Source: Escherichia coli (GTDB lineage Bacteria > Pseudomonadota > Gammaproteobacteria > Enterobacterales > Enterobacteriaceae). Taken from it: a stretch of DNA of 28,938 bases. Shown here piece by piece: positions 8,870 to 28,938 of this stretch (position 1 is the stretch's first letter; each line of letters opens with the position of its first letter). The notes below the pieces were generated by a model that made no database searches, was not told the DNA's origin, and saw nothing but the letters and a program-made list of their open reading frames with translations. The DNA lies in assembly GCF_003334315.1 (NCBI RefSeq), contig NZ_QOWR01000059.1, one strand, 5' to 3'. A program made the position numbers and the translations under genes.

Positions 8870-10129
8870 TCAACCAATCCCCATGCTTTCAGCCAGTGCT
8901 TCCAGCGCCTGTTCAAAACACGCCAGCGGTGCCCGCACAGTGCCTGCGCCAATCTGCCCGATCCCCGCCTCTTTATGGGCGATACCGGTATTGATGAGTG
9001 GCGTAATGCCGGTTTCTACCACGCGACGAATGTCCAGTCCCAGGCACGCGCCCTGAAAATCCCAGCCTGGGATCTGCAACTGCATATTGCGCTCAAGGTA
9101 AATTTCCGCCATCTCTTCAGATACCGCTCTGGCCGCTTCCATGCCACCCGCACCGACAAAGCGCGTTACGCCAGGCGCTGCGATCATTGCCGCACCTCCG
9201 ATACCAAAGGTTTCGGTAATCGCGCTATCGCCCATATCCGGGTTCGCCTGCTCCTGCGAGAAGCCGGTGAAAAACAGACCTTGCGGAGTGTTTACAGGCG
9301 CAGTAAACCAGCGTTCGCCCAGCCCGCTTACCCGAATCCCGAACATATTGCCGTTGCGGGTCATTGCCGTGACGATGCTGCCTGCGCGGATCATCGCGCC
9401 AGCATCCATCGCCGCCTTGCAGTAAGCCATCGCGAGGTTGAGGAAGAACTGATCGGTCACGCTGAGGAAATCCATCACTTCGGCGATGTGCTGTTTATCA
9501 TGATCGAGGCGAGCAATTTGTGGGACCAGCGCACGCATTAACAGTGCAGAGGAAGCAATATTGCGTTGATGGAACTCATCGCCCATCGTAATGCCCTGCG
9601 CCATCATCGCCGTGAGATCGATACCGCGCTCCATGCGCCCCAGCGCCGCGCTTAATACTGGCATTAACACATCGCGCATCCAGCGATGGCGAGTCAGGAC
9701 ATCTTCGCCGTAAGCGCCAAAACGCATCACTTTGCCGATACCTTCGTTGAGGTTGCAGTACGCCCGGTTGCCGTCGGTCACGTTCTCAACCACCAGCATC
9801 GGCATACTGGCAGAAGTAATACCGCCCATTGGACCGACGGCATTCACATGGTGACAAGGAATGAAGTTCACTTCCCCCTGCTCCAGTATTGCCAGCGCCT
9901 GCGCTTCATCTTTCGCCCAGCCTTCGAACAGACATGCGCCCACGCACGCCCCTTTCATGGGTCCGGTCATCTCCTGCCAGCGCATTGGCGGCCCGGCGTG
10001 AAGCAGTGTTTTGCCCTCGTTTAGTTCGCTGATAAGTGAAGAAGCCGGTTGCACATCCAGCCAGTGTGGACGAGCGCGACGAATTTGTTCGATAACCGCA
10101 GCATTGGCTTGCGCCACTGATGTAAACAT
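8870..10129 (-). CDS. ylbE: YlbE (DUF1116 family; reported subunit of oxamate carbamoyltransferase), intact
   Basis: Uninterrupted 419-aa [29 protein letters not shown]...; AAGGGG RBS immediately upstream, overlapping the fdrA stop. Confidence 0.85.
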
Positions 10130-10138
10130 GGGAACCCC

Positions 10139-11806
10139 TTATTGCAAACGTTCTAATAAACGAGCCAGTTTTTTATTGCCGCCGGCGACTGGCGACCATT
10201 GGTAATGCACAACCGGTTTGCTGGCGCTTTGTAGCTCCAGCGCAAAGCTGCGTAATCCGATGTTAATCACGGCGACGTTTTCCAGTAATGACGGTGTGTG
10301 TTGCTGAGTGGCAGGCGAAAGCGGACGAATCAGTGCCGCCGCCAGCAAGGTGGCTTCCGGCAGCGAACTCACTACCGCGATCCCTGCATCTTCCAGCGTG
10401 GCGATTTGCTGCGAGCGGCATTGCGGGTCACGTTCAGTGCCTGTCACCGTGGCAATGGCATACAGTGGTTGATTGTCTGAACGCGCAGCACAGGCTTTTT
10501 GCCAGGCGCTTACCAGCGAGGCGGCAGGATCGGCGGTCGCACCGAAGCCAATCACGACATCAAGCAGCAGCACACGCACTTGCGGTTTAGCGCCGAGATC
10601 GGTAATTAACTGGTTGCGTAAGGTTGGGTCGATCATCGGATGGGGACGCCCGACGGTGTAGAAATCATCGCCGAGGTCAATAATCTGGTGGCCATCGGCG
10701 TCCAGCATCATGCCATGTTGATGGGTATCGTCGGCTTCCACGCCAAGGTGCCCGGCAAGTAATCCCGCCGCTTCGGCGGCCAGCGTACCGCCGGTATACA
10801 AACCGCAAATAAATCCGCTGCTGACAGGTGCTATTGCGTTACGTCGCGCCGTGACGCGTGAAAGCAGGCAAGCCAGGCGTGCGGCCTCATCCAGCGAGGA
10901 GGCAAACCAGACATTCTCGTCGCGGGCCACCGCCGGGGTATAACCTAAAAACAGCGCCACCGTCGGTTTGCCGGTTGCTTTCATGGCATTAACAATTTTC
11001 AGACGCACAGCTTCGGCAGGCGGTTTTGAAACAAATGCCAGCACTTCGCTTTTCTCGTCTGCACTGAGCATTTCCAGCGCCGTCAGCGCACTGATGCCGC
11101 CCACTTCACGGCTGAGGTCGCGCCCGCCAAGGCCAATCGCGTGAGTAATTCCCTCCCCTGCCAGCGCAATCTGCGAACACAGTTCCTGAATCCCGGTACC
11201 GGAAGCGCCAATGACGCCAATATTGCCTTCCGGCATCACGTTAGCAAAAGCCAGCGGCGTGCCGGCAATCATCGACGTACCGCAGTCCGGCCCCATCACC
11301 AGCAAGCCTTTTTCCCGCGCGCGGCTTTTAAGTTGGATTTCATCTTCCAGCGTGACGTTATCGGAGAACATCATCACGTTGAGGTTGCGATCCAGCGCCT
11401 GGTTCGCCAGCTCCGCCGCATACTCGCCAGCCACTGAAATCAGCGCCAGACTGGCGTCGGGTAATTTCTGACAGGCACTGTCCCAGCGACGCACCTGCGT
11501 CAAGGCCTGGCTGCTGCCTGACCCCTGCGCCAGTTGTTTTAGCGCCTCTTCAAGCTGCTGCATAATCGCCTACGCGATCCCCGCATCCGCCGCTTCGCTA
11601 CGAATTGTCACGCAAATATCGTTCGACGTGGCGTTATTAAAATCGTCATGCCAGAAACCTGTGGTATCTAATAACGCTTTATTGGCGGGCGTACCCATCA
11701 TTACGGAAACATCATCAACATTTTCTGATTCGCTGAGTTTTCGTGAAATAATCATTAAACTGACCGAATCCTGAAAACACCCTTTTTTAATAAAGGCGTG
11801 GATCAT
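10139..11806 (-). pseudogene. fdrA: fdrA (succinyl-CoA-synthetase-like protein; reported AllF) interrupted by an in-frame TAG at codon 79
   Basis: ORFs 11570..11806 (78 aa, ...AADAGIA) and 10139..11563 (474 aa, MQQLEE...) are in the same frame. Minus strand reads GCG-TAG-GCG-ATT-ATG, so 78 + stop + 2 + 474 = 555 codons, the length I recall for K-12 FdrA. Confidence 0.75.
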
Positions 11807-12043
11807 AACAACTCCTTAAAAATTGCACCCATGGCAATTGCACGAGCAGTGTTAATGTGGCGATTACGGTATCGATGACAACGGGTAAATAAGGTGATGA
11901 ATATTACACAGGGATTATTAACAAAAGAATTCAAATAACCGCCATGCTATTACGTGTTATTTTTTAATAAGCGTGGTTGTTTTAAAAACCAGGTTAAAAG
12001 AGAGCGGATTATCAAATAAATTCTAACTATATTTTTTTGCCTG

Positions 12044-12063
12044 TCTGGATCACATAATCCAGA
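12044..12063. promoter_or_regulatory. Palindrome TCTGGAT-N6-ATCCAGA in the fdrA/allD divergent promoter region (candidate regulator site)
   Basis: Perfect 7-bp inverted repeat about 60 nt upstream of allD ATG in a 316-bp AT-rich intergenic region. Confidence 0.3.
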
Positions 12064-12122
12064 TATTTTCCCTGTATGTTAATTGCAGTCATGCTTCACA
12101 CCGTCGTTAAAAAGGAAGACAG

Positions 12123-13172
12123 ATGAAAATCAGTCGGGAAACACTCCACCAGCTAATCGAGAATAAACTCTGCCAGGCTGGGTTAAAACGTGAGCACGCT
12201 GCAACCGTGGCTGAAGTATTGGTTTACGCCGATGCCAGAGGGATCCACTCTCATGGCGCGGTGCGCGTTGAATACTACGCAGAACGCATTTCAAAAGGCG
12301 GCACCAACCGCGAACCGGAGTTTCGTCTTGAAGAAACCGGGCCGTGCTCGGCAATTTTACATGCCGACAATGCCGCCGGACAGGTCGCGGCGAAAATGGG
12401 TATGGAACATGCCATCAAAACCGCCCAGCAAAAAGGCGTTGCGGTGGTCGGTATCAGCCGGATGGGTCACAGCGGCGCAATCTCTTATTTTGTGCAGCAG
12501 GCAGCCCGCGCTGGATTAATTGGCATTTCGATGTGCCAGTCCGATCCAATGGTGGTGCCGTTTGGCGGCGCGGAAATTTACTACGGTACTAACCCATTGG
12601 CCTTTGCCGCGCCGGGAGAAGGCGATGAGGTCCTTACCTTTGATATGGCGACTACCGTACAGGCATGGGGAAAAGTGCTCGACGCCCGCTCGCGTAATAT
12701 GTCTATTCCGGATACCTGGGCGGTCGATAAAAACGGTGCACCAACAACCGATCCGTTCGCGGTACATGCTCTGCTCCCCGCCGCCGGGCCGAAAGGGTAT
12801 GGCCTGATGATGATGATTGACGTCCTCTCAGGCGTCTTACTCGGCTTACCGTTCGGGCGACAGGTTAGTTCGATGTATGACGATTTACACGCCGGGCGTA
12901 ATTTGGGGCAATTACATGTAGTTATTAACCCGAACTTTTTCTCCTCCAGCGAATTATTCCGTCAACATCTTAGCCAGACCATGCGCGAATTAAATGCCAT
13001 TACCCCCGCGCCCGGTTTTAATCAGGTTTATTATCCCGGACAGGATCAGGATATTAAACAACGCAAAGCCGCCGTCGAAGGCATCGAAATTGTTGATGAT
13101 ATTTACCAGCATTTAATTTCCGACGCGCTTTATAACACGTCATACGAAACGAAAAATCCCTTTGCGCAATAA
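12123..13172 (+). CDS. allD: Ureidoglycolate dehydrogenase
   Basis: 349-aa ORF MKISRETLHQLIENKLCQAGLKREHAATVAEVLVYADARGIHSHGAVRVEYY... (Ldh_2 / malate-L-lactate dehydrogenase family). Confidence 0.93.
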   Translation: MKISRETLHQLIENKLCQAGLKREHAATVAEVLVYADARGIHSHGAVRVEYYAERISKGGTNREPEFRLEETGPCSAILHADNAAGQVAAKMGMEHAIKTAQQKGVAVVGISRMGHSGAISYFVQQAARAGLIGISMCQSDPMVVPFGGAEIYYGTNPLAFAAPGEGDEVLTFDMATTVQAWGKVLDARSRNMSIPDTWAVDKNGAPTTDPFAVHALLPAAGPKGYGLMMMIDVLSGVLLGLPFGRQVSSMYDDLHAGRNLGQLHVVINPNFFSSSELFRQHLSQTMRELNAITPAPGFNQVYYPGQDQDIKQRKAAVEGIEIVDDIYQHLISDALYNTSYETKNPFAQ

Positions 13173-13193
13173 TTATTGAGACAGGACTTTCTT

Positions 13194-14429
13194 ATGATTA
13201 CACATTTTCGTCAAGCCATAGAAGAAACGCTGCCCTGGCTTTCCTCTTTTGGCGCTGACCCAGCGGGTGGGATGACCCGTTTACTTTATTCGCCGGAATG
13301 GCTGGAAACCCAGCAGCAATTTAAAAAAAGAATGGCAGCAAGCGGGCTGGAAACACGTTTCGATGAAGTGGGGAATTTATACGGTCGCCTGAGTGGCACC
13401 GAATATCCACAGGAAGTGGTTCTGAGCGGTTCGCATATCGATACCGTGGTTAACGGCGGTAACCTCGACGGGCAATTCGGCGCGCTGGCGGCGTGGCTGG
13501 CAATTGACTGGTTGAAAACGCAATACGGCGCGCCGTTACGTACGCTTGAAGTGGTGGCGATGGCGGAAGAAGAAGGCAGCCGCTTCCCGTATGTCTTCTG
13601 GGGCAGTAAAAATATCTTTGGGCTGGCGAATCCTGACGACGTGCGGAATATCTGTGATGCCAAAGGAAATAGTTTTGTCGATGCGATGAAGGCTTGCGGA
13701 TTTACTCTGCCGAACGCCCCACTAACTCCGCGTCAGGATATTAAAGCCTTTGTCGAACTGCATATCGAACAGGGCTGTGTGCTGGAAAGTAATGGGCAAT
13801 CAATTGGCGTGGTGAATGCAATTGTCGGGCAACGTCGCTATACGGTGACGCTGAACGGCGAATCAAACCATGCAGGCACCACGCCGATGGGTTATCGTCG
13901 TGATACGGTTTACGCTTTCAGTCGCATTTGCCATCAGTCGATCGAAAAAGCGAAAAAGATGGGCGACCCGCTGGTGCTGACCTTTGGCAAAGTAGAGCCG
14001 CGCCCGAATACGGTGAATGTGGTGCCGGGTAAAACCACGTTCACCATTGATTGTCGTCATACCGACGCCGCCATCCTGCGTGATTTCACCCAACAGTTAG
14101 AAAACGACATGCGGGCGATTTGCGATGAAATGGACATTGGTATTGATATCGATTTATGGATGGACGAAGAACCCGTGCCGATGAATAAGGACCTGGTCGC
14201 CACCCTGACAGAATTGTGTGAAAGTGAAAAACTGAATTACCGGGTGATGCACAGTGGTGCCGGGCATGACGCGCAAATTTTCGCGCCTCGCGTACCAACC
14301 TGCATGATTTTCATTCCCAGCATCAACGGGATCAGCCATAACCCGGCGGAACGCACCAATATTACCGACCTTGCCGAAGGGGTCAAAACGTTGGCAATCA
14401 TGCTTTATCAACTTGCCTGGCAGAAATAA
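13194..14429 (+). CDS. allC: Allantoate amidohydrolase (M20 peptidase family)
   Basis: ATG 13194 (MITHFRQAIEETLPWLSSFGADPAGG...) with GAGACAGGA RBS, 411 aa; the ORF-track start at 13176 is a TTG 18 nt upstream. Confidence 0.93.
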   Translation: MITHFRQAIEETLPWLSSFGADPAGGMTRLLYSPEWLETQQQFKKRMAASGLETRFDEVGNLYGRLSGTEYPQEVVLSGSHIDTVVNGGNLDGQFGALAAWLAIDWLKTQYGAPLRTLEVVAMAEEEGSRFPYVFWGSKNIFGLANPDDVRNICDAKGNSFVDAMKACGFTLPNAPLTPRQDIKAFVELHIEQGCVLESNGQSIGVVNAIVGQRRYTVTLNGESNHAGTTPMGYRRDTVYAFSRICHQSIEKAKKMGDPLVLTFGKVEPRPNTVNVVPGKTTFTIDCRHTDAAILRDFTQQLENDMRAICDEMDIGIDIDLWMDEEPVPMNKDLVATLTELCESEKLNYRVMHSGAGHDAQIFAPRVPTCMIFIPSINGISHNPAERTNITDLAEGVKTLAIMLYQLAWQK

Positions 14430-14439
14430 GGAGTCATAA

Positions 14440-15225
14440 ATGGGATATTTAAATAACGTCACCGGTTACCGCGATGATTTACTGGCTAACCGTGCGATTG
14501 TGAAACACGGTAATTTCGCACTGTTAACCCCGGATGGTCTGGTAAAAAATATTATTCCGGGCTTTGAAAATTGTGACGCGACAATCCTCTCCACGCCAAA
14601 GCTGGGTGCCTCTTTTGTTGATTATCTGGTCACACTGCATCAAAACGGCGGCAACCAACAGGGCTTCGGTGGCGAAGGCATTGAAACGTTCCTGTATGTG
14701 ATCTCTGGAAATATCACTGCCAAAGCCGAAGGCAAAACATTTGCCTTAAGCGAAGGTGGCTATCTTTATTGCCCGCCAGGCTCCTTAATGACGTTTGTTA
14801 ACGCCCAGGCCGAAGACAGCCAAATCTTTTTATATAAGCGCCGCTATGTTCCGGTAGAAGGCCATGCACCGTGGCTGGTTTCTGGCAATGCCAGCGAACT
14901 GGAACGCATTCACTATGAAGGTATGGATGATGTGATCCTGCTGGATTTTCTGCCCAAAGAGTTAGGTTTTGATATGAACATGCATATCCTCTCTTTTGCA
15001 CCAGGTGCCAGCCACGGTTATATCGAAACACACGTTCAGGAACACGGTGCCTATATTCTTTCCGGTCAGGGGGTTTATAACCTCGACAATAACTGGATCC
15101 CGGTGAAAAAAGGCGATTACATCTTTATGGGCGCTTATTCTTTACAGGCTGGTTATGGTGTAGGGCGTGGTGAAGCGTTCAGCTATATTTACTCGAAAGA
15201 TTGTAACCGCGACGTAGAGATTTAA
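14440..15225 (+). CDS. allE: (S)-ureidoglycine aminohydrolase (cupin)
   Basis: 261-aa ORF MGYLNNVTGYRDDLLANRAIVKHGNFALLTPDGL...; AGGAG RBS; follows allC by 10 nt. Confidence 0.9.
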   Translation: MGYLNNVTGYRDDLLANRAIVKHGNFALLTPDGLVKNIIPGFENCDATILSTPKLGASFVDYLVTLHQNGGNQQGFGGEGIETFLYVISGNITAKAEGKTFALSEGGYLYCPPGSLMTFVNAQAEDSQIFLYKRRYVPVEGHAPWLVSGNASELERIHYEGMDDVILLDFLPKELGFDMNMHILSFAPGASHGYIETHVQEHGAYILSGQGVYNLDNNWIPVKKGDYIFMGAYSLQAGYGVGRGEAFSYIYSKDCNRDVEI

Positions 15226-15267
15226 GTCATACCACTCGCCTGATTATTTTTAGCTATGTTGGATTTT

Positions 15268-15294
15268 GCCACGGTTTATACCGTGGCTTTTTTT
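15268..15294 (+). terminator. Rho-independent terminator of allD-allC-allE operon
   Basis: GCCACGG-TTTATA-CCGTGGC followed by TTTTTTT. Confidence 0.75.
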
Positions 15295-15302
15295 GTAACA
15301 TT

Positions 15303-15406
15303 GCCTGATGCGCTTCGCTTATCAGGCCTACATGATCTCTGCAATATATAGAATTTGCGCGATTTTCAGGAAGGATATGGTACTCATGCCGCATCCGGCA
15401 TGAGTA
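15303..15406. repeat. REP-like palindromic elements between convergent allE and glxK
   Basis: GCCTGATGCGCTTCGCTTATCAGGCCTACA (REP-type) at 15303..15332 and palindrome TACTCATGCC-GCATCC-GGCATGAGTA at 15381..15406. Confidence 0.6.
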
Positions 15407-15452
15407 CTGCACTCTTATGCGATATAAATCGCATCCGCTTTAAAGGTAAGGG

Positions 15453-16598
15453 TTAGTTTTTAATTCCCTGACCTATTTTAATGGCGCAGGCAATATTTCG
15501 CGCGCTGTTGAAGAGATTGGTTTCACCGCTGGCGAGCACTTCGGCTAAAGGTGCCAGACGAGGCAAAATGCTGAATACCGCGTCAATGCCGTACTGGTGC
15601 ACCACTTCCACGCCATCACCCAATACGCCAGCAATCCCAATCACCGGTACATTAAACTGCTTCGCCACCGACGCCACACCCAGCGGCGCTTTACCGCCTG
15701 CCGTTTGCGAGTCGATGCGCCCTTCCCCGGTAATCACCAGTGCTGCGCCCTGCACTGCCTGCGCAAGATTGACCGCATTCAACACAATTTCAATGCCCGG
15801 TTTAATATCCGCATTGAGAAATACCGCCGCCGCAATACCCATACCGCCCGCAGCGCCGCCGCCCGCCATCTGGCAGACATTAATTTCAGTTTGCTGTTGT
15901 AAAACACGGGCGTAATTTTGCAGCCCCTGTTCAAGTTCTTCGACCATCTCCGGCGTTGCCCCTTTTTGCGGGCCAAACACCGCCGCCGCGCCGCGTGCCC
16001 CTACCAGCGGGTTATCAACGTCACATGCTACTTCAATATGGCAATTCGCCAGACGCGGATCGCATTCATCCATCTCAATGCTTGCCACGCGCGCTAAATT
16101 ACCACCGTTTGCCGCCAGCGCCTGACCGTCGGCATCAAGGAAACGCACACCGAGCGCCTGCGCCATGCCCATACCGCCGTCGACCGTCGCACTGCCGCCA
16201 ATGCCGAGAATAATATGGCGAATGTCGTTATCCAGCGCATGACGAATTAACTCCCCCGTACCAAAACTGGAGGCCAGCAACGGATTACGCTTTTCAGGCG
16301 CGACCAGCATCAGGCCACTTGCTGCCGCCATCTCAATCACCGCCGTTTTCCCGTCGCCGGTAAGGCCATAAAAAGCATTCACTTTTTCGCCCATCGGCCC
16401 GCAGACTTCAAGCGTCACGATGTTGCCGCCCGTCGCGGCGACCATCGCATCCACCGTCCCTTCGCCGCCATCCGCTATCGGCAAACAGATATAGTTCGCA
16501 TCGGGAAAGAGGGTCGAAAACCCGGCTTTAATTGCCTGACAACATTTTTCTGCACTTAAGCTCTCTTTAAAAGAGTCTGGCGCAATGACAATCTTCAT
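15453..16598 (-). CDS. glxK: Glycerate kinase II
   Basis: [48 protein letters not shown]..., 381 aa from ATG at 16598. Confidence 0.93.
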
Positions 16599-16619
16599 TA
16601 TCAATCCTTTTTCAACAAA

Positions 16620-17927
16620 TTATTCGATGCGTTCCCACGGAATAAGGTTATCCATAAGAACAGCCAGTAAAATCCCGACCAATAAGCCGTTACTGAGCAG
16701 AGGACGAAGCGTTAATGGAAGGTCTTGCAGATACACAGGCGGTAATGCCATTAAAAATATGCCGACAAATAACGGCAATGCGAGTCGATAAATATTGCGA
16801 GCGGTAAACGTTATTTGCTGGCTAAACACCAGCGCGGAAAAGAGTAAAGGCAGATAAGAAACCAGCATGACCGCACTACTCACGGGTAAAGGGATACTGC
16901 AAAACAGTCGCGTGAGTGCAGGAACCAGCGCCACCAGCAGGCAAATAACGCTGCCATAAATAAACGAACGCCGCGTGTAATCGCCAGTCTGGGTTAATAA
17001 ACCAATGGATGAAACAAACGGTGAAAATGGAATTACCGCCAGCGGTACGGTTATCAGCGTCATAAATCCGGTCGCCACAAAGCTACGACGATAACGCGTA
17101 TTCCCTGCGCCCTGCTGCGGATAAAAAACATCCGTGCCCCGAATCGCACCGTAGGTATTGCTGATATTTACCAGACCTGTAATCACCGCCGTCAGAATAA
17201 TTCCCGGCGACAAAGCACCGCCACTGCCGAGCGGGAACCACTGCCAGTGCAACTCACCGGAGAGCGAATGCGAAGAAGGAAAGCAAAAGTACCACAACAA
17301 CCAGCCGGTTATCGTACCGACCAGCAGGCCATAACGGGCAAAACGTTGCGGCAGAAAGATAATCATCGCCAGTACCAGGCACATCACCGCCACCGAGAGC
17401 GCGAACGGTGGTAACTGAATTTTAAAATTTGGGTCGGCTATGCCAAACGGCAGCCCGAGCATACCTTTGAAAAAGATAGTGGTCAGCTGCGCGCCCAGCA
17501 TCAACATAAACAAGACCATCACCGACGGCGTAAATAACCGTGCCAGGCGATGGCCTAATCCGCTAAAACCAATCAACATCGTCAGCACGCCGGAGAGTGC
17601 AATCCCCACCGCCAGACTGGTAGCGATATCGTTGATCGGTGTCCCGCGCGATGCTTCGCCAAGGGTGATAGTAAGGATGGTTCCCCACCACAGGCCACCC
17701 GGCCCTTCCATAATAGCGCGACGATGACCGCAGAACGCCTGAGCGAAGCAGGCCAGTGCGGTAGCAAGAAAAGCATATTGCGTGAGCGTAAGCAGGCTAC
17801 TTTGCGGCAACTGAAAAGCAGAAAGTAGCGTAGGAGGAACCACAACCGTGTTGCAAAAAATAAAGAAAAACCACTGAAATCCTGATAACAGGCTTTCGCG
17901 GCTGACTGCAAAATTGAACATAAACAC
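16620..17927 (-). CDS. ybbY: Putative purine/xanthine permease (NCS2 family)
   Basis: 435-aa polytopic membrane ORF MFMFNFAVSRESLLSGFQWFFFIFCNTVVVPP...; alternative start 2 codons downstream at 17921. Confidence 0.85.
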   Translation of the reverse strand: MFMFNFAVSRESLLSGFQWFFFIFCNTVVVPPTLLSAFQLPQSSLLTLTQYAFLATALACFAQAFCGHRRAIMEGPGGLWWGTILTITLGEASRGTPINDIATSLAVGIALSGVLTMLIGFSGLGHRLARLFTPSVMVLFMLMLGAQLTTIFFKGMLGLPFGIADPNFKIQLPPFALSVAVMCLVLAMIIFLPQRFARYGLLVGTITGWLLWYFCFPSSHSLSGELHWQWFPLGSGGALSPGIILTAVITGLVNISNTYGAIRGTDVFYPQQGAGNTRYRRSFVATGFMTLITVPLAVIPFSPFVSSIGLLTQTGDYTRRSFIYGSVICLLVALVPALTRLFCSIPLPVSSAVMLVSYLPLLFSALVFSQQITFTARNIYRLALPLFVGIFLMALPPVYLQDLPLTLRPLLSNGLLVGILLAVLMDNLIPWERIE

Positions 17928-17977
17928 ACCTTAACCGGAGAATGCCCGCCGCAAGGACGGGCATTGCAGGGGCCAGA

Positions 17978-19339
17978 TTACTGCTGATGTTTAAGGATAA
18001 ATTGACCTTTCGGCGCAACAGGGAAGCCCTGTTCAATGTCGTAAATCACATCACCACGTAAGATGGTTTTCGTGATACGCGCGCCAATGGTACGGCCAAC
18101 ATACGGGCTGACTTTGTGGCGATATTCCAGATCGTCATTGGTAAGAACATAGCTGCTATTCGGCTGAATGAAGACGAAGTCGGCATCTTTTCCTGGGGCG
18201 ATACGGCCTTTTTGCTGCAGACCGAAAATATCTGCTGCGTTAGTCGCCATTAATTTGCCGAACATTGGCAGAGACATACCGCGTTTCTGTACCGCTTCAT
18301 CGAACATCACGTCCATGCAGCTTTGCAGACCGGCGATACCGCCCCATGCTTTCATGATGTTACCGGCTTTCATTTCCGGCGGGCATGGAGAGTGGTCGGA
18401 AACCAGGCAGTCGATTTCACCGTTAAACAGTTTTTCCCACATGCCTTTCTGGTTTTCCAGATCGCGGATCGGCGGTGAACACTTCGCCAGAGTACCGATT
18501 TCTTCGAACTGATCGGTATCCAGTACAAAGTAATGCGGGCAGGATTCACAAGTAACGTCCTGACCTTCCTGACGTGCACGAGTCACTTCCTCAACACCTT
18601 CCGGGCTGCTGACGTGGCAAACGTGCAGACGGCAACCAGCAACTTTCGCCAGATACAGTACGCGGCGAATTGCTTCCACTTCGGTAAATACCGGACGCGA
18701 AGCCACATAGTCATGAGCGGTTACGCGACCTTCACGCTTCGCTTCTTCGCCCAGTTCGTCACAAATCAGCGCGTTTTCGCAGTGCACCAGCACCGGCTGA
18801 CCCAGTTCGCCCAGCTTCTGCGCACCTTTGAAGAACTGCCAGTCGTTTACATCACGGAAGTCGTTGTCGATACCGCGATCGCCACAGGTCGCAACGAAGC
18901 ATTTGAAGCCGACAACGCCCACTTCATCCAGCTCATGCAGACGGTCGATGTTGTAAGACACCAGGCCACCGAGTTGTGCCGCATCAATAGTCAGCTTGCC
19001 TTTAGCGGCATCGAACTTCAGTTCAATTGAAGCGCGGTCAACCGTTGCAGGCAGCTGGTTGAGCGGCATTTCGATCATGGTGGTGATACCACCTTTTGCC
19101 GCTGCGCGAGTACCGGTTTCATAACCTTCCCAGTGGCTACGACCCGGTTCAGAAATATGGGTGTGCGCATCAACCATGCCCGGCGAAACCACCAGACCAG
19201 ACGCATCCATAACTTCTTTTGCATCGCCCAGATCCTGACCGATAGCAGCAATTTTTCCGCCTTTAACGGCGATATCTACAACGCGAGCTTCGTTTTCTAA
19301 AATAACGGTGCCGTTTTTAATGATTAAATCAAAAGACAT
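17978..19339 (-). CDS. allB: Allantoinase (cyclic amidohydrolase)
   Basis: 453-aa [80 protein letters not shown]... with metal-binding HxH motif. Confidence 0.95.
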
Positions 19340-19398
19340 AACAAACTCCTTGTAAAATACAGATTGGTTTTTAACTCAATGTTCAATATCGGGATTAA

Positions 19399-20853
19399 TT
19401 AACCTATGGTTTTTTGCTCTCCTGTTTTTTCTGCTGTTGTACGTTTCTTTAATAAGGCGTAGGCCGCAAAGGCGACGATGACGCCGACAAACCATGAAAC
19501 ACGCGATAACGGTTCCATAAAGTGAATAAACTTACCGCCAAGAGATAAAATAACGGCCACCAGAGTTACTGAAAACGCAGTGAGGTTAAAACCGTTATCG
19601 TAATATTTATAATCGCCAGGTGCGGTATACAGTTCATCAAGATTAATTTGTCCGCGCATCACCACAAAATAATGCGCCATCATGACACCAATTACCGGAC
19701 CAAGCATTCCGCCGATAATATCGAGGAAAAGATAAATGCTGTCCTGATTTTCCATTAATTTTCACGGGCAGATCAGCAAGCTGATAATACTGGCAATCAG
19801 TACGCCGTTTTTATAGGTCAGTTTTGTCGGTGCAATGGCGGCAATCTGATAACCGGCTGGAATAATATTACCGGTCGCGTTAGTGGAGATAGTTGTCATC
19901 AGAATAACCAGTACCGCAAAGAACGAGGCGAACAGGCTGTCCCAACGCTGAACAATATCCAGCACGTTCCAGGTATCAGCGCCGTAGTGAATACTGGCTC
20001 CGGCAATAATACATACCCCGGCGACCGCAAACAGAATATAGGCCACAACTAAACCCAGCGTTTGCCCCAGCGCCTGCTCACGAAACGAGTGGGCGTTTTG
20101 CGTAAAGTCGGATGCGCTCACCGCCGGTGCCGCCCAGACCGCAACTACCGCGTTAATCACCACCAGGAACAGGAAGCCACCGTTTTCTGCTTTCTGAATA
20201 CCGCTCGGAATGTAGTCAAAGATTGGACCGATCCCGATCAGTGAAATCGCCCAAATCGCCATACCGCCGAAAACGATATAGATGCACGGGTTAAGAATGG
20301 CAGTGAATTTATTTAAAACTTTGCCACCGCCAAAACCTATACCAACGTTGACCAGCCAGAAGATTAAGAAAGTAATTAAGCCCGGTAGAGAAAGGCCTAA
20401 CAGAGTGAAATCACCACCGAGAGTTAAAAATCCCGGCCAGATTTTGCCAATCAGAATCAAGCAGGCCAGTGACCCCGCGTAACATTGCAAACCAAACCAC
20501 ATGATGGCGGCAATTCCGCCCCTTAATAATCCGGGAAACAGTGCACCACGTACACCGTAAGAAGCACGCAGGATCATGGCAAAAGGCACACCGTATTTAC
20601 TGCCCGCAGCACCGTTTAATACCATTACCGCGGCAATGAAAAAGGCGCTGAGGATAATTGCCAGCATAATACTAAAGGTAGACAAGCCGAGAATAAAAAA
20701 GCCGCCGACCATCACATAATTGGGAACGTTATGAACCGAACCCATCCATAAGGTAAAATAGTTAAATGTTTTCCAGGTCCGCTGGCTTTGCGTTTTCGGC
20801 AATAGATCTTCGCTATAGCCGCGTTGCTGGAATAGTTTTCTCTGATGTTCCAT
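19399..20853 (-). pseudogene. ybbW: Allantoin permease (NCS1 family) interrupted by an in-frame TGA at codon 364
   Basis: ORFs 19762..20853 (363 aa ...LLICP) and 19399..19755 (118 aa MENQDS...) share a frame. Minus strand reads ...TGA-AAA-TTA-ATG-GAA, so 363 + stop + 2 + 118 = 484 codons, the length I recall for K-12 YbbW/AllP. Confidence 0.75.
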
Positions 20854-20990
20854 AAATCCCTCTTAATTTCACGTATCGAATAACGTTGTTTTAATCTAGC
20901 TATGAGGAACAAATAAAATAAAAATATTATTTTTAATACTGAAGCAACATCTTTGGCTGCTTTCTTTTTTAATATTGCTGGCCGATTCAT
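20712..20990 (-). CDS. ybbV: Hypothetical small protein YbbV (doubtful ORF overlapping ybbW 5' end)
   Basis: 92-aa ORF MNRPAILKKKAAKDVASVLKIIFLFYLFLIARLKQ... in the position of annotated K-12 ybbV; AT-rich, overlaps ybbW by about 140 nt. Confidence 0.3.
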   Translation of the reverse strand: MNRPAILKKKAAKDVASVLKIIFLFYLFLIARLKQRYSIREIKRDLWNIRENYSSNAAIAKIYCRKRKASGPGKHLTILPYGWVRFITFPIM

Positions 20991-21021
20991 TTTCTGATAT
21001 CGGCCATTTTTATTGCGGGTA

Positions 21022-21900
21022 TCAGGCCAGTTTATGGTTAGCCATTAATTCCAGCGCCTGCACTAACGCAGAGTGATCCAACTGGCTGCCACCGTTTGCC
21101 GCACAGGTATTAAATAACTCCTGGCAGGTCGCAGTGTTTGGCAGGTTCAGCGCAAGTGCTTTCGCACTTTGCAGTGCCAGGTTGAGATCTTTCTGGTGCA
21201 GAGCGATTTTGAAGCCCGGATTAAAGGTGCGTTTAATCATACGCTCGCCATGAACTTCCAGAATACGTGAGGAAGCAAAGCCGCCCATCAGCGCCTGGCG
21301 CACACGTACCGGGTCCGCACCAGCTTTTGAAGCAAATAGCAGGGCTTCAGAAACCGCTTCAATATTGAGCGCCACGATAATCTGATTTGCCACTTTGCAG
21401 GTTTGACCATCGCCGTTACCGCCCACGAGGGTGATATTTTTACCGAGCAGTTCAAACAGCGGTTTAACACGTTCAAATACCGCTTCATCACCGCCAACCA
21501 TAATCGACAACGTCCCTTCACGCGCACCGATTTCACCGCCGGAGACTGGCGCATCGAGATAATCGCCGCCCAGTTCATTCACCTGACGAGCGAAACGCTT
21601 AGTTTCAATCGGGGAAATGGAGCTCATATCAACAATGGTTTTGCCCTTCAGCGAGGCTTTGGTACAACCATTTTCACCGAACAGAACTTCTTCAACCTGA
21701 GGTGTGTCCGGCACCATAATAAAAATGATGTCCGATGCTTCCGTTACCTGGCGAGCAGTTTCAACACTGACGGCACCCAGTGACAGTAATTCATCAGCAA
21801 CCGGTCCAATGGTCGTGACATGTAATTGATGACCGGCACGCGCCAGATTAATGGCCATCGGTGTACCCATAATGCCTAAGCCAATAAATCCCAGTTTCAT
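21022..21900 (-). CDS. glxR: Tartronate semialdehyde reductase (2-hydroxy-3-oxopropionate reductase)
   Basis: 292-aa ORF MKLGFIGLGIMGTPMAINLARAGHQLHVTT... NAD-binding GxGxxG of the 3-hydroxyisobutyrate dehydrogenase family. Confidence 0.93.
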   Translation of the reverse strand: MKLGFIGLGIMGTPMAINLARAGHQLHVTTIGPVADELLSLGAVSVETARQVTEASDIIFIMVPDTPQVEEVLFGENGCTKASLKGKTIVDMSSISPIETKRFARQVNELGGDYLDAPVSGGEIGAREGTLSIMVGGDEAVFERVKPLFELLGKNITLVGGNGDGQTCKVANQIIVALNIEAVSEALLFASKAGADPVRVRQALMGGFASSRILEVHGERMIKRTFNPGFKIALHQKDLNLALQSAKALALNLPNTATCQELFNTCAANGGSQLDHSALVQALELMANHKLA

Positions 21901-24620: not shown

Positions 24621-24647
24621 TCAAAAAAACCCGCTCCGCAGAGCGGG
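24621..24647 (-). terminator. Rho-independent terminator of allR
   Basis: On minus strand: CCCGCTC-TGCG-GAGCGGG followed by TTTTTTT, about 12 nt after the allR stop. Confidence 0.75.
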
Positions 24648-28410: not shown

Positions 28411-28470
28411 GAGAGTTACCGGTTTTGATATGAGTGTCGAATCCTTATCCAAAACAAGAGGTAACTCTCA
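28411..28470 (+). other. Long inverted repeat / stem-loop spanning the RBS and start codon of the downstream HTH ORF
   Basis: GAGAGTTACCGGTTTTG (28411..28427) pairs with CAAAACAAGAGGTAACTCTC (28451..28470); the 3' arm contains AAGAGG and ends one nt before ATG 28471. Confidence 0.5.
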
Positions 28471-28841
28471 TGCTTCATACTGCCAATCCCGTCATCAAAC
28501 ACAAAGCCGGTTTGCTCAATCTGGCTGAAGAACTCAGCAACGTATCAAAAGCCTGTAAAATCATGGGCGTTTCGCGTGATACGTTTTATCGTTACCGCGA
28601 ACTGGTCGCTGAAGGCGGTGTGGATGCGCAGATTAATCGTAGTCGCCGCGCTCCTAACCTTAAGAACCGTACCGATGAGGCAACTGAACAGGCTGTTGTT
28701 GATTACGCCGTCGCTTTCCCGACACATGGTCAGCACCGGGCCAGCAACGAGCTGCGTAAACAGGGGGTTTTTATCTCCGACAGTGGTGTCCGTTCTGTCT
28801 GGTTACTCCATAACCTTGAGAATCTCAAAAGACGATACTGA
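28471..28841 (+). pseudogene. ylbG: Transposase-like helix-turn-helix protein fragment (ylbG-like IS remnant)
   Basis: MLHTANPVIKHKAGLLNLAEELSNVSKACKIMGVSRDTFYRYRELVAEGGVDAQ... resembles the N-terminal HTH of IS-family transposases with no catalytic domain following; start taken at ATG 28471 behind AAGAGG rather than the ORF-track start 28434. The position matches where I recall the K-12 pseudogene ylbG. Confidence 0.5.
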
Positions 28842-28861
28842 ACAAATTTTATCAGGTGACG

Positions 28862-28938
28862 TGATCTTACCCAGCAATAGTGGACACGCGGCTAAGTGAG
28901 TAAACTCTCAGTCAGAGGTGACTCACATGACAAAAACA
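28862..28938 (+). mobile_element. insE: IS3 left end (IRL and start of orfA), continues beyond window end
   Basis: TGATCTTACCCAGCAATAGTGGACACGCGGCTAAGTGAGTAAACTCTCAGTCAGAGGTGACTCACATGACAAAAACA matches my memory of the IS3 left terminus and the OrfA start (ATG 28927, MTKT...). Confidence 0.85.

Follow-up and report, generated by a model that had tools for sequence, protein, structure and literature searches.

Two premature stop codons in the allantoin regulon of a rare Escherichia coli clone, a probable case of early lineage-specific pseudogenisation

Host-restricted or invasive Salmonella (S. Typhimurium ST313, Typhi/Paratyphi A) are known to carry point-mutation pseudogenes in their allantoin permease and catabolic genes. 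In E. coli, allantoin is imported by AllW, whereas AllF forms one of the subunits of oxamic transcarbamylase (PMC10163214, PMC11326118); the consequences of losing either protein have been described for engineered K-12 strains. Deletion of allW, in an allC-deletion background, reduces allantoin uptake to zero (PMC10163214). Strains deleted for allF (also called fdrA) still consume allantoin; they produce no oxamate, and carbon is diverted to oxalate (PMC11326118, PMC8550087).

The window, i.e. the whole 28.9-kb stretch of DNA that was analysed, harbours interrupted forms of both genes, which the first-pass annotation had placed in the allantoin regulon in agreement with these functions. The features concerned are as follows:

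10139..11806, minus strand: fdrA/allF, oxamic transcarbamylase subunit, a 555-codon frame whose translation is broken by a single stop, at codon 79
11570..11572, minus strand: allF Q79*, premature TAG, ancestral CAG; changed base 11572, G>A on the plus strand
11561..11563, minus strand: allF Met82, in-frame ATG two codons past the TAG, start of a 474-residue ORF (10139-11563)
19399..20853, minus strand: ybbW/allW, NCS1-family allantoin transporter, a 484-codon frame whose translation is broken by a single stop, at codon 364
19762..19764, minus strand: allW W364*, premature TGA, ancestral TGG; changed base 19762, C>T on the plus strand
19753..19755, minus strand: allW Met367, in-frame ATG two codons past the TGA, start of a 118-residue C-terminal ORF (19399-19755)

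We compared the window with the six closest complete genomes (99.96-99.97% identical, ECZP248 being aligned first) and with K-12. All of these relatives have a G at 11572 and a C at 19762 on the plus strand, and hence the ancestral codons are CAG (Gln) and TGG (Trp). The alignment thus bears out what the first-pass annotation had deduced from the letters alone, namely that both stops replace sense codons, that the latter were CAG and TGG, and that both changes are G:C>A:T transitions. K-12 and each of the six close genomes have an annotated, intact fdrA of 555 residues, and K-12 and five of the six have an intact allW of 484 residues. When the six bases private to the lineage of the window are reverted, each of the 26 annotated CDSs has a single stop, at its end; therefore, just allF and allW are interrupted in the actual sequence, and the 24 other genes of the window are intact. 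The flanking genes folD, ybcJ, ybcI, cysS, ppiB, lpxH, purE, purK and mnmH/selU are full length, so that the earlier description of the housekeeping neighbourhood was also correct.

The allF stop is located between the HMA_AllF_N domain, found in the 78-residue product, and the CoA_binding and Ligase_CoA domains, found in the 474-residue product. The structure deposited as 'Protein fdrA' (PDB 3DMY) corresponds exactly to residues 82-555. In AllW, which is homologous to Mhp1, W364* deletes the last three hydrophobic helices (TM10-12); Trp364 is aligned with a conserved Trp of Mhp1, just ahead of the TM10-equivalent segment. The Met82 codon of allF is preceded by a weak AGG only as a Shine-Dalgarno sequence, and the Met367 codon of allW has no good one upstream. 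From the reading frames, we infer only that translation might be reinitiated at allF Met82 and likewise at allW Met367. Selenocysteine incorporation or programmed recoding at the allW TGA was considered and rejected, as the stop is missing from all relatives and the 70 nt downstream do not fold better than shuffled sequence (z=-0.83). An Rfam search of the region downstream of the TGA gave no match, and a search for tRNA genes within the window found none.

Both stops are genuine alleles of a rare E. coli lineage. The Logan assemblies of SRR10357290 and ERR271230 match the window at 100% identity and contain both stops and all six private alleles, and a Logan contig of SRR3824135, also 100% identical, carries the allW stop and two adjacent private alleles. 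The presence of both stops in assemblies of independent runs, and of an identical haplotype in runs from different submissions, excludes sequencing or assembly error. Two single-base changes might a priori be such errors, and nothing else speaks in favour of this explanation; with all six private alleles, the stops among them, identical in two runs and a third run matching as well, we consider its probability to be negligible. As to rarity, the allF Q79* allele (searched for as a 61-mer) and the TGA allele of allW W364* are both absent from the 5,426 complete E. coli genomes scanned, which rules out a known polymorphism. The 78-residue FdrA fragment was found in five Logan contigs, as was the 363-residue AllW fragment. 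Queries for carriers with the 474-residue FdrA product mostly matched contig-end artefacts devoid of the TAG. Scans of metagenome and species-representative collections with 40-mers and 37-mers yielded zero matches.

The six substitutions private to this lineage are all G:C>A:T and all lie within 9525-21322. The four that accompany the stops, and one change shared with a single relative, are the following:

9525, minus strand: ylbE/allG A202V (GCC>GTC), private; G>A on the plus strand, no exact 61-mer match in 5,426 genomes
11905, minus strand: private intergenic change, 99 nt upstream of the allF ATG; C>T on the plus strand, 0/5,426 genomes
20238, minus strand: allW V206I (GTC>ATC), private; C>T on the plus strand, 0/5,426 genomes
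21322, minus strand: glxR A193A (GCC>GCT), private and synonymous; G>A on the plus strand, 1/5,426 genomes
13110, plus strand: allD Y330H (TAT>CAT), common only to the window strain and ES6

No intermediate genotypes were found: three of the four accompanying alleles are missing from the complete genomes, and the sole genome with 21322A, that of strain 1332KP, represents an unrelated background. The allG A202V protein allele is also found in distant lineages (98-99% identical DNA) and is thus homoplasic. The change at 11905 is inside the -142/-83 fragment upstream of allF, to which phosphorylated ArcA was seen to bind by gel shift (PMC12535856); promoter-like hexamers overlapping this position were sought, and none was found. 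Because allD Y330H is common only to the window strain and ES6, the latter is likely the sister lineage. The IS1 junction at window position 204/205, used as a marker for closer relatives, gave no single-piece match.

The first-pass annotation had proposed relaxed selection or a mutator history, and it had stressed that only the all locus was hit. Our substitution counts, which cover the 28.7 kb alignable part of the window, do not support the latter two claims. The mutations could be by-products of a mutator phase, chemical mutagenesis or cytosine deamination that struck the all locus by chance, with alkylating agents as an example of agents that give G:C>A:T changes and clustered co-mutations. 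Consistent with this idea, the private substitutions are 6/6 G:C>A:T, they are confined to an 11.8-kb part of the 28.7 kb (range test, p=0.046), and CAG>TAG and TGG>TGA are typical stop-creating C>T outcomes. However, the ES6 branch is equally long (six private changes, against 0-3 in each of the other relatives) and has a near-equal bias (5/6), and hence a mutator is not supported. The spectrum itself is as had been stated, but its contrast with the relatives taken together (8/15 G:C>A:T) is marginal (Fisher p=0.055). Furthermore, mismatch-repair mutators produce mostly A:T>G:C changes, of which there are none among the private substitutions, none of the six sites is a Dcm site (CCWGG), and we found no consistent flanking-base or alkylation context at them. 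G:C>A:T is in any case the dominant spontaneous change in E. coli, and altogether we deem a mutagenic episode improbable. As for location, 70% of the alignable window belongs to the all regulon; therefore, the presence of all six private changes inside it is not significant (p=0.115). The SNPs of the relatives fall inside and outside the regulon in proportion.

The all genes are under purifying selection across the species. Their species-wide pN/pS values of 0.08-0.11 are comparable to those of the adjoining housekeeping genes (0.05-0.10), and 5,288 of the 5,426 complete genomes contain the 10.7-kb segment. Thus, the loss is specific to the lineage of the window. The coding changes on its terminal branch comprise two nonsense, two missense and one synonymous substitution, compared with six non-synonymous and three synonymous ones in the relatives, counts too small to tell relaxed selection apart from the surplus of not yet purged changes that terminal branches usually show. 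Inactivating lesions have also arisen in a close relative. Strain cM2a (NZ_CM176588.1), which carries none of the private alleles of the window, has allG W356* (TGG>TGA) and an IS1 insertion in allW. Inactivating lesions thus affect 2 of the 17 regulon genes in the window lineage and two genes in cM2a as well, and the independent events in cM2a indicate that decay recurs in this clade. In other backgrounds, allW W364* has arisen independently through TGG>TAG, and IS elements have inserted into this gene several times. We do not regard allW as a hotspot for IS insertions and repeated W364* changes, as these cases came from a search with the 118-residue C-terminal ORF and reflect ascertainment. 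The decay that was initially suggested is in line with the parallel lesions of cM2a, but relaxed selection on the pathway in general finds no echo in the species-wide pN/pS, which is on a par with that of the adjoining housekeeping genes.

These data also bear on whether giving up allantoin import and the oxamate branch was positively selected in the niche of this clade, as a case of adaptive gene loss. Two of five coding changes are nonsense, against a neutral expectation of 4.6% per change (p=0.02, for a window that was flagged for these very codons). This excess is not predicted by pure drift, though the window was ascertained through its stops. Two lineages of the seven-genome clade have each acquired two disruptive lesions in the same two modules, and the additional independent allW disruptions in other backgrounds point in the same direction. 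However, ascertainment weighs on all of this, as the window was chosen for its stops and the other allW lesions were found via the truncated product. In addition, species-wide purifying selection keeps the genes, and we know of no benefit conferred by the loss of AllW or AllF. Positive selection for the loss hence appears very unlikely. Alternatively, both genes might be alive, with translation restarting two codons past each stop and/or reading through it to give two-piece AllF and AllW proteins that retain partial function; AllF would then be made of an HMA-like domain and the 82-555 body, and AllW of TM1-9 and TM10-12. In that case, the nonsense alleles would persist because they are mild and function is kept. 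Restart past nonsense codons is known in lacI, functional split permeases are known in the case of LacY, and UGA, being a leaky stop, can be decoded by tRNA-Trp, so that the protein would regain its original residue. An in-frame ATG occurs within three codons at 7.5% of the possible G:C>A:T nonsense sites in the window, and the joint chance that both stops have one is 0.0056, a statistic that was computed post hoc. The positions of the breaks would also suit split proteins: that of fdrA falls between Pfam domains, upstream of a portion of the protein that was crystallised alone, and that of allW falls in a short segment between hydrophobic helices 9 and 10. Against retained function, the Shine-Dalgarno sequences of both restart codons are poor, as described above, and AllW is unstable when it merely lacks AllB binding (PMC10163214). 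Moreover, the lesions of cM2a in the same modules are clearly destructive, which indicates that outright loss is tolerated in this clade. We therefore regard the persistence of function as unlikely.

We consider it probable that, in a rare, phylogroup-A-like E. coli clone, two genes of the allantoin (AllR/AllS) regulon each lost their function recently and independently, through a point mutation specific to this lineage. Both stops would have arisen by the commonest spontaneous base change, G:C>A:T. The W364* mutation is predicted to end the NCS1-family importer past its ninth transmembrane helix, and this truncation most likely prevents the cell from taking up external allantoin, the step with which the pathway begins. 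Q79* would end the oxamic transcarbamylase subunit past its small N-terminal domain. Without AllF, the oxamate branch and its yield of carbamoyl phosphate and ATP are most likely shut off, and polarity of the allF stop may also lower the expression of the downstream genes allG, allH and ybcF/allK. As the 15 other regulon genes are intact, this would be a single lineage at the very start of pathway erosion, and the tolerance of the lesions suggests that the pathway is dispensable in the niche of that lineage, i.e. that selection on it is relaxed. On sequence grounds, the locus is thus best described as a case of ordinary early pseudogenisation, lineage-specific and with probable loss of function. 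The heading 'decay of anaerobic allantoin utilisation' under which these stops were first reported is right in that two genes of the regulon are stopped, but it is overstated for 2 of 17 genes, one of which can be deleted in K-12 with allantoin still consumed.

The finding has little weight beyond strain-level annotation. Judging by the sequence data at hand, it represents routine pseudogene formation by the commonest spontaneous mutation. It leads to the prediction that the clone can neither import allantoin nor run the ATP-yielding oxamate branch. It also adds a natural case, paralleled in cM2a, of a commensal-type E. coli whose allantoin regulon has begun to erode. The all locus of cM2a is one counterpart: the two strains are members of one tight clade (99.96-99.98% identical), and each has a lesion in the transporter gene and another in a gene for an oxamic transcarbamylase subunit. 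They differ by the genes, sites and mechanisms involved, with an IS1 insertion rather than a point mutation in allW of cM2a. The engineered K-12 deletions affect the same genes, allW and allF, and supply the expected phenotype of the natural alleles. In contrast with those deletions, each natural allele consists of a nonsense codon with a potential restart codon close by, in a background that is 99.2% identical to K-12 in this region. Finally, the Salmonella pseudogenes resemble those of the window in that allantoin genes are affected while neighbouring housekeeping genes are intact, a pattern read as the loss of a dispensable nutrient pathway. The case described here differs in that it concerns two genes only, in one rare E. 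coli lineage known from 28.9 kb.

Translation of the window showed, as the first-pass annotation had described, a single internal stop codon in each of two genes of the allantoin regulon; all the remaining annotated CDSs, including the flanking housekeeping genes, are uninterrupted:

10139-11806, minus strand: fdrA (allF), 555-codon frame, TAG at codon 79
19399-20853, minus strand: ybbW (allW), 484-codon frame, TGA at codon 364

The six closest complete genomes (ECZP248, LCP22S3_I2, cM2a, L6-21, ES6 and NT1F31; 99.96-99.97% identity to the window; from pigs, frogs, waterfowl and humans) and K-12 (99.2% identity) all have G at position 11572 and C at 19762. This makes CAG in fdrA and TGG in allW the ancestral codons, as had been guessed from the sequence, and relative to these genomes each gene acquired its nonsense codon by a G:C>A:T transition.

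The window, part of an E. coli chromosome, is organized as follows:

Left part: IS1 end, 5' end of sfmA, folD, ybcJ, ybcI, cysS, ppiB, lpxH, purEK
Next: the complete allantoin (AllR/AllS) regulon, ybcF-ylbF-ylbE-fdrA, allDCE, glxK-ybbY-allB-allW-glxR-hyi-gcl, allR, allA, allS
Right end: mnmH/selU, then ylbG truncated by IS3
15232-15298 and 15324-15366, minus strand: Rfam matches to the enterobacterial sRNA families STnc480 (87.6 bits) and ES036 (38.1 bits, barely over threshold), allE-glxK intergenic region

The IS1 end (1-204) joins the 5' part of sfmA, annotated as fimA in relatives, at 204/205, around codon 24, which leaves the sfm fimbrial operon interrupted or deleted in this strain. This exact junction has no single-piece match among 5,426 complete genomes. 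IS1 is placed differently in relatives, in fimD in LCP22S3_I2, and deletions end at window positions 563 in ECZP248 and 362 in L6-21. At 28434-28938, ylbG is cut short by an IS3-family element, which truncates it in all close relatives as well; short-read contigs stop at 28889. Short-read contigs of the same strain also break at 15320/15345, between allE and glxK, and this suggests that a repeated element lies there. A poly-A run at 24623, between allR and gcl, has the majority length in the window and is one A shorter in ECZP248 alone; it lies in the gcl promoter/allR 3' region, to which the K-12 annotation assigns the sRNA AllZ.

Are the stops real? Sequencing error was ruled out by matching contigs in Logan assemblies of other public sequencing runs. 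Both stops are present in contigs of SRR10357290 and ERR271230, which match the window at 100% identity, and SRR3824135 has the allW stop. Look-up of the exact truncated products found them only in assemblies of a handful of such runs; most other contigs retrieved with the 474-residue FdrA fragment are contig-end artefacts with a normal CAG. None of the 5,426 complete RefSeq E. coli genomes matches exactly the 61-mers centred on either stop, every match differing by one base, and stop-bearing 37-40-mers were absent from the metagenome contigs and species-representative genomes scanned. Given these identical contigs and absences, the stops are true alleles, belonging to a rare clone of which several sequencing runs exist.

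Six substitutions are private to the window relative to the six close genomes and K-12, all of them G:C>A:T.

Private substitutions of the window
9525: ylbE/allG, A202V
11572: fdrA, Q79*
11905: intergenic, 99 nt upstream of the allF ATG, C>T
19762: allW, W364*
20238: allW, V206I
21322: glxR, synonymous

The change at 11905 (-99) falls within the 60-bp fragment (-142/-83) bound by phosphorylated ArcA, which activates the allF operon (PMC12535856). Among the 5,426 genomes, the four non-stop alleles point to no closer relative. Three lack an exact match, and 21322A occurs in one complete genome of unrelated background. The A202V protein allele of AllG is also present in distant lineages and is therefore homoplasic. 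ES6 is likely the sister lineage, since it alone shares AllD Y330H (13110) with the window.

A mutator history, one of two causes proposed in the first-pass annotation, is not supported. The ES6 branch has as many private changes in the same 28.7 kb (six, five of them G:C>A:T), and no spontaneous change is commoner in E. coli than G:C>A:T. Across all relatives, 8/15 polarised changes are of this type, against 6/6 in the window (one-sided Fisher test, p=0.055). None of the six positions is a Dcm site, and their flanking bases share no consistent context. Judged within these 28.7 kb, neither a mutator nor a mutagen is needed. All six changes lie inside the regulon, but it fills 70% of the alignable window, so the chance of this is 0.115; their spacing is marginally clustered (range test, p=0.046). 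Pathway-specific targeting is thus beyond what the window can show.

The other proposed cause, relaxed selection, does not hold for the species at large. In comparisons with K-12 and three other backgrounds, pN/pS is 0.08-0.11 for the all genes, similar to the 0.05-0.10 of flanking housekeeping genes; no internal stops occur in those orthologues, and the 10.7-kb segment is found in 5,288 of the 5,426 genomes. On the terminal branch of the window, two nonsense, two missense and one synonymous coding changes were counted, and six non-synonymous (one nonsense) and three synonymous on those of the relatives, numbers too small to tell relaxed selection apart from the usual surplus of recent changes not yet purged. 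Of all the G:C>A:T coding changes that the window could undergo, 4.6% create stops; two nonsense out of five exceeds neutrality (p=0.02), a value not to be taken at face value because the window was flagged for these very codons.

Tolerated loss within the clade, in contrast, fits lesions found in cM2a. This member of the same tight clade has its own allG W356* (TGG>TGA, equivalent to 9062), an IS1 within allW (equivalent to 19876-19886) and a ybcF missense change; like the window strain, it thus has one oxamic transcarbamylase subunit and the importer disrupted. These parallel lesions are the best support for real erosion of the pathway in the clade. Look-up of the 118-residue C-terminal AllW ORF revealed further disruptions: an independent W364* through TGG>TAG in SRR29639426 (background 98.6% identical to the window), IS1 in S163-2 (two copies) and GCA_053151375.1, and another IS in GCA_964044515.1. 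The insertions map to window equivalents 19783-19892 and 20617-20625, a clustering that is meaningless because they were ascertained through that ORF. The cases do establish that allW has been lost repeatedly. In LR134225.1 and another long-read assembly, the stretch with allB, ybbY, glxK and glxR contains many split genes, which resemble indel errors more than real pseudogenes and call for caution in any pseudogene census of the locus.

W364* deprives AllW of its last three hydrophobic helices; in an alignment with the Mhp1 hydantoin transporter, Trp364 is paired with a conserved Trp just ahead of the TM10-equivalent segment. AllW is the allantoin importer, and no uptake was detected in a strain without allW and allC (PMC10163214). 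FdrA forms the oxamic transcarbamylase with AllG and AllH, and K-12 without allF still consumes allantoin, makes no oxamate and diverts carbon to oxalate (PMC11326118; PMC8550087). One report identifies YbcF as the carbamate kinase of the oxamate branch (PMC9843812). From this K-12 literature, we predict that the strain lacks import and the oxamate/ATP branch, so that the proposed decay of allantoin utilization would not extend to every enzyme. Polar effects are possible on allG, allH and ybcF/allK downstream of fdrA, and on allB, ybbY and glxK downstream of allW.

Partial function might persist through restart or UGA readthrough. An in-frame ATG lies two codons past both stops (FdrA Met82, 11563-11561; AllW Met367, 19755-19753; minus strand); only 7.5% of the sites in the window where G:C>A:T could create a nonsense codon have an ATG within three codons, which gives a joint chance, calculated post hoc, of 0.0056. 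Moreover, the fdrA stop separates the HMA_AllF_N domain from the CoA-binding/ligase body, and the 474-residue ORF that follows (10139-11563, minus strand) corresponds exactly to the construct of PDB 3DMY ('Protein fdrA', residues 82-555, K-12-like allele), hence this piece can fold alone. However, neither ATG has more than a weak ribosome-binding sequence, and cM2a, with its clearly destructive lesions, shows that outright loss is tolerated, which makes such residual function improbable. Recoding at the allW TGA was rejected: the stop is not conserved, and there is neither a SECIS-like fold (z=-0.83) nor an Rfam match.

The initial interpretation is supported in part: a mutator history finds no support, and pathway-specific targeting is more than this window can show. 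What stands are two nonsense transitions, real, recent and of independent origin, which hit different genes of the same regulon in a rare lineage; the pathway would be dispensable there and its loss tolerated, a reading that the parallel case of cM2a fits. The phenomenon is an ordinary one, early pseudogenization, and is likewise known for the allantoin genes of host-restricted Salmonella.
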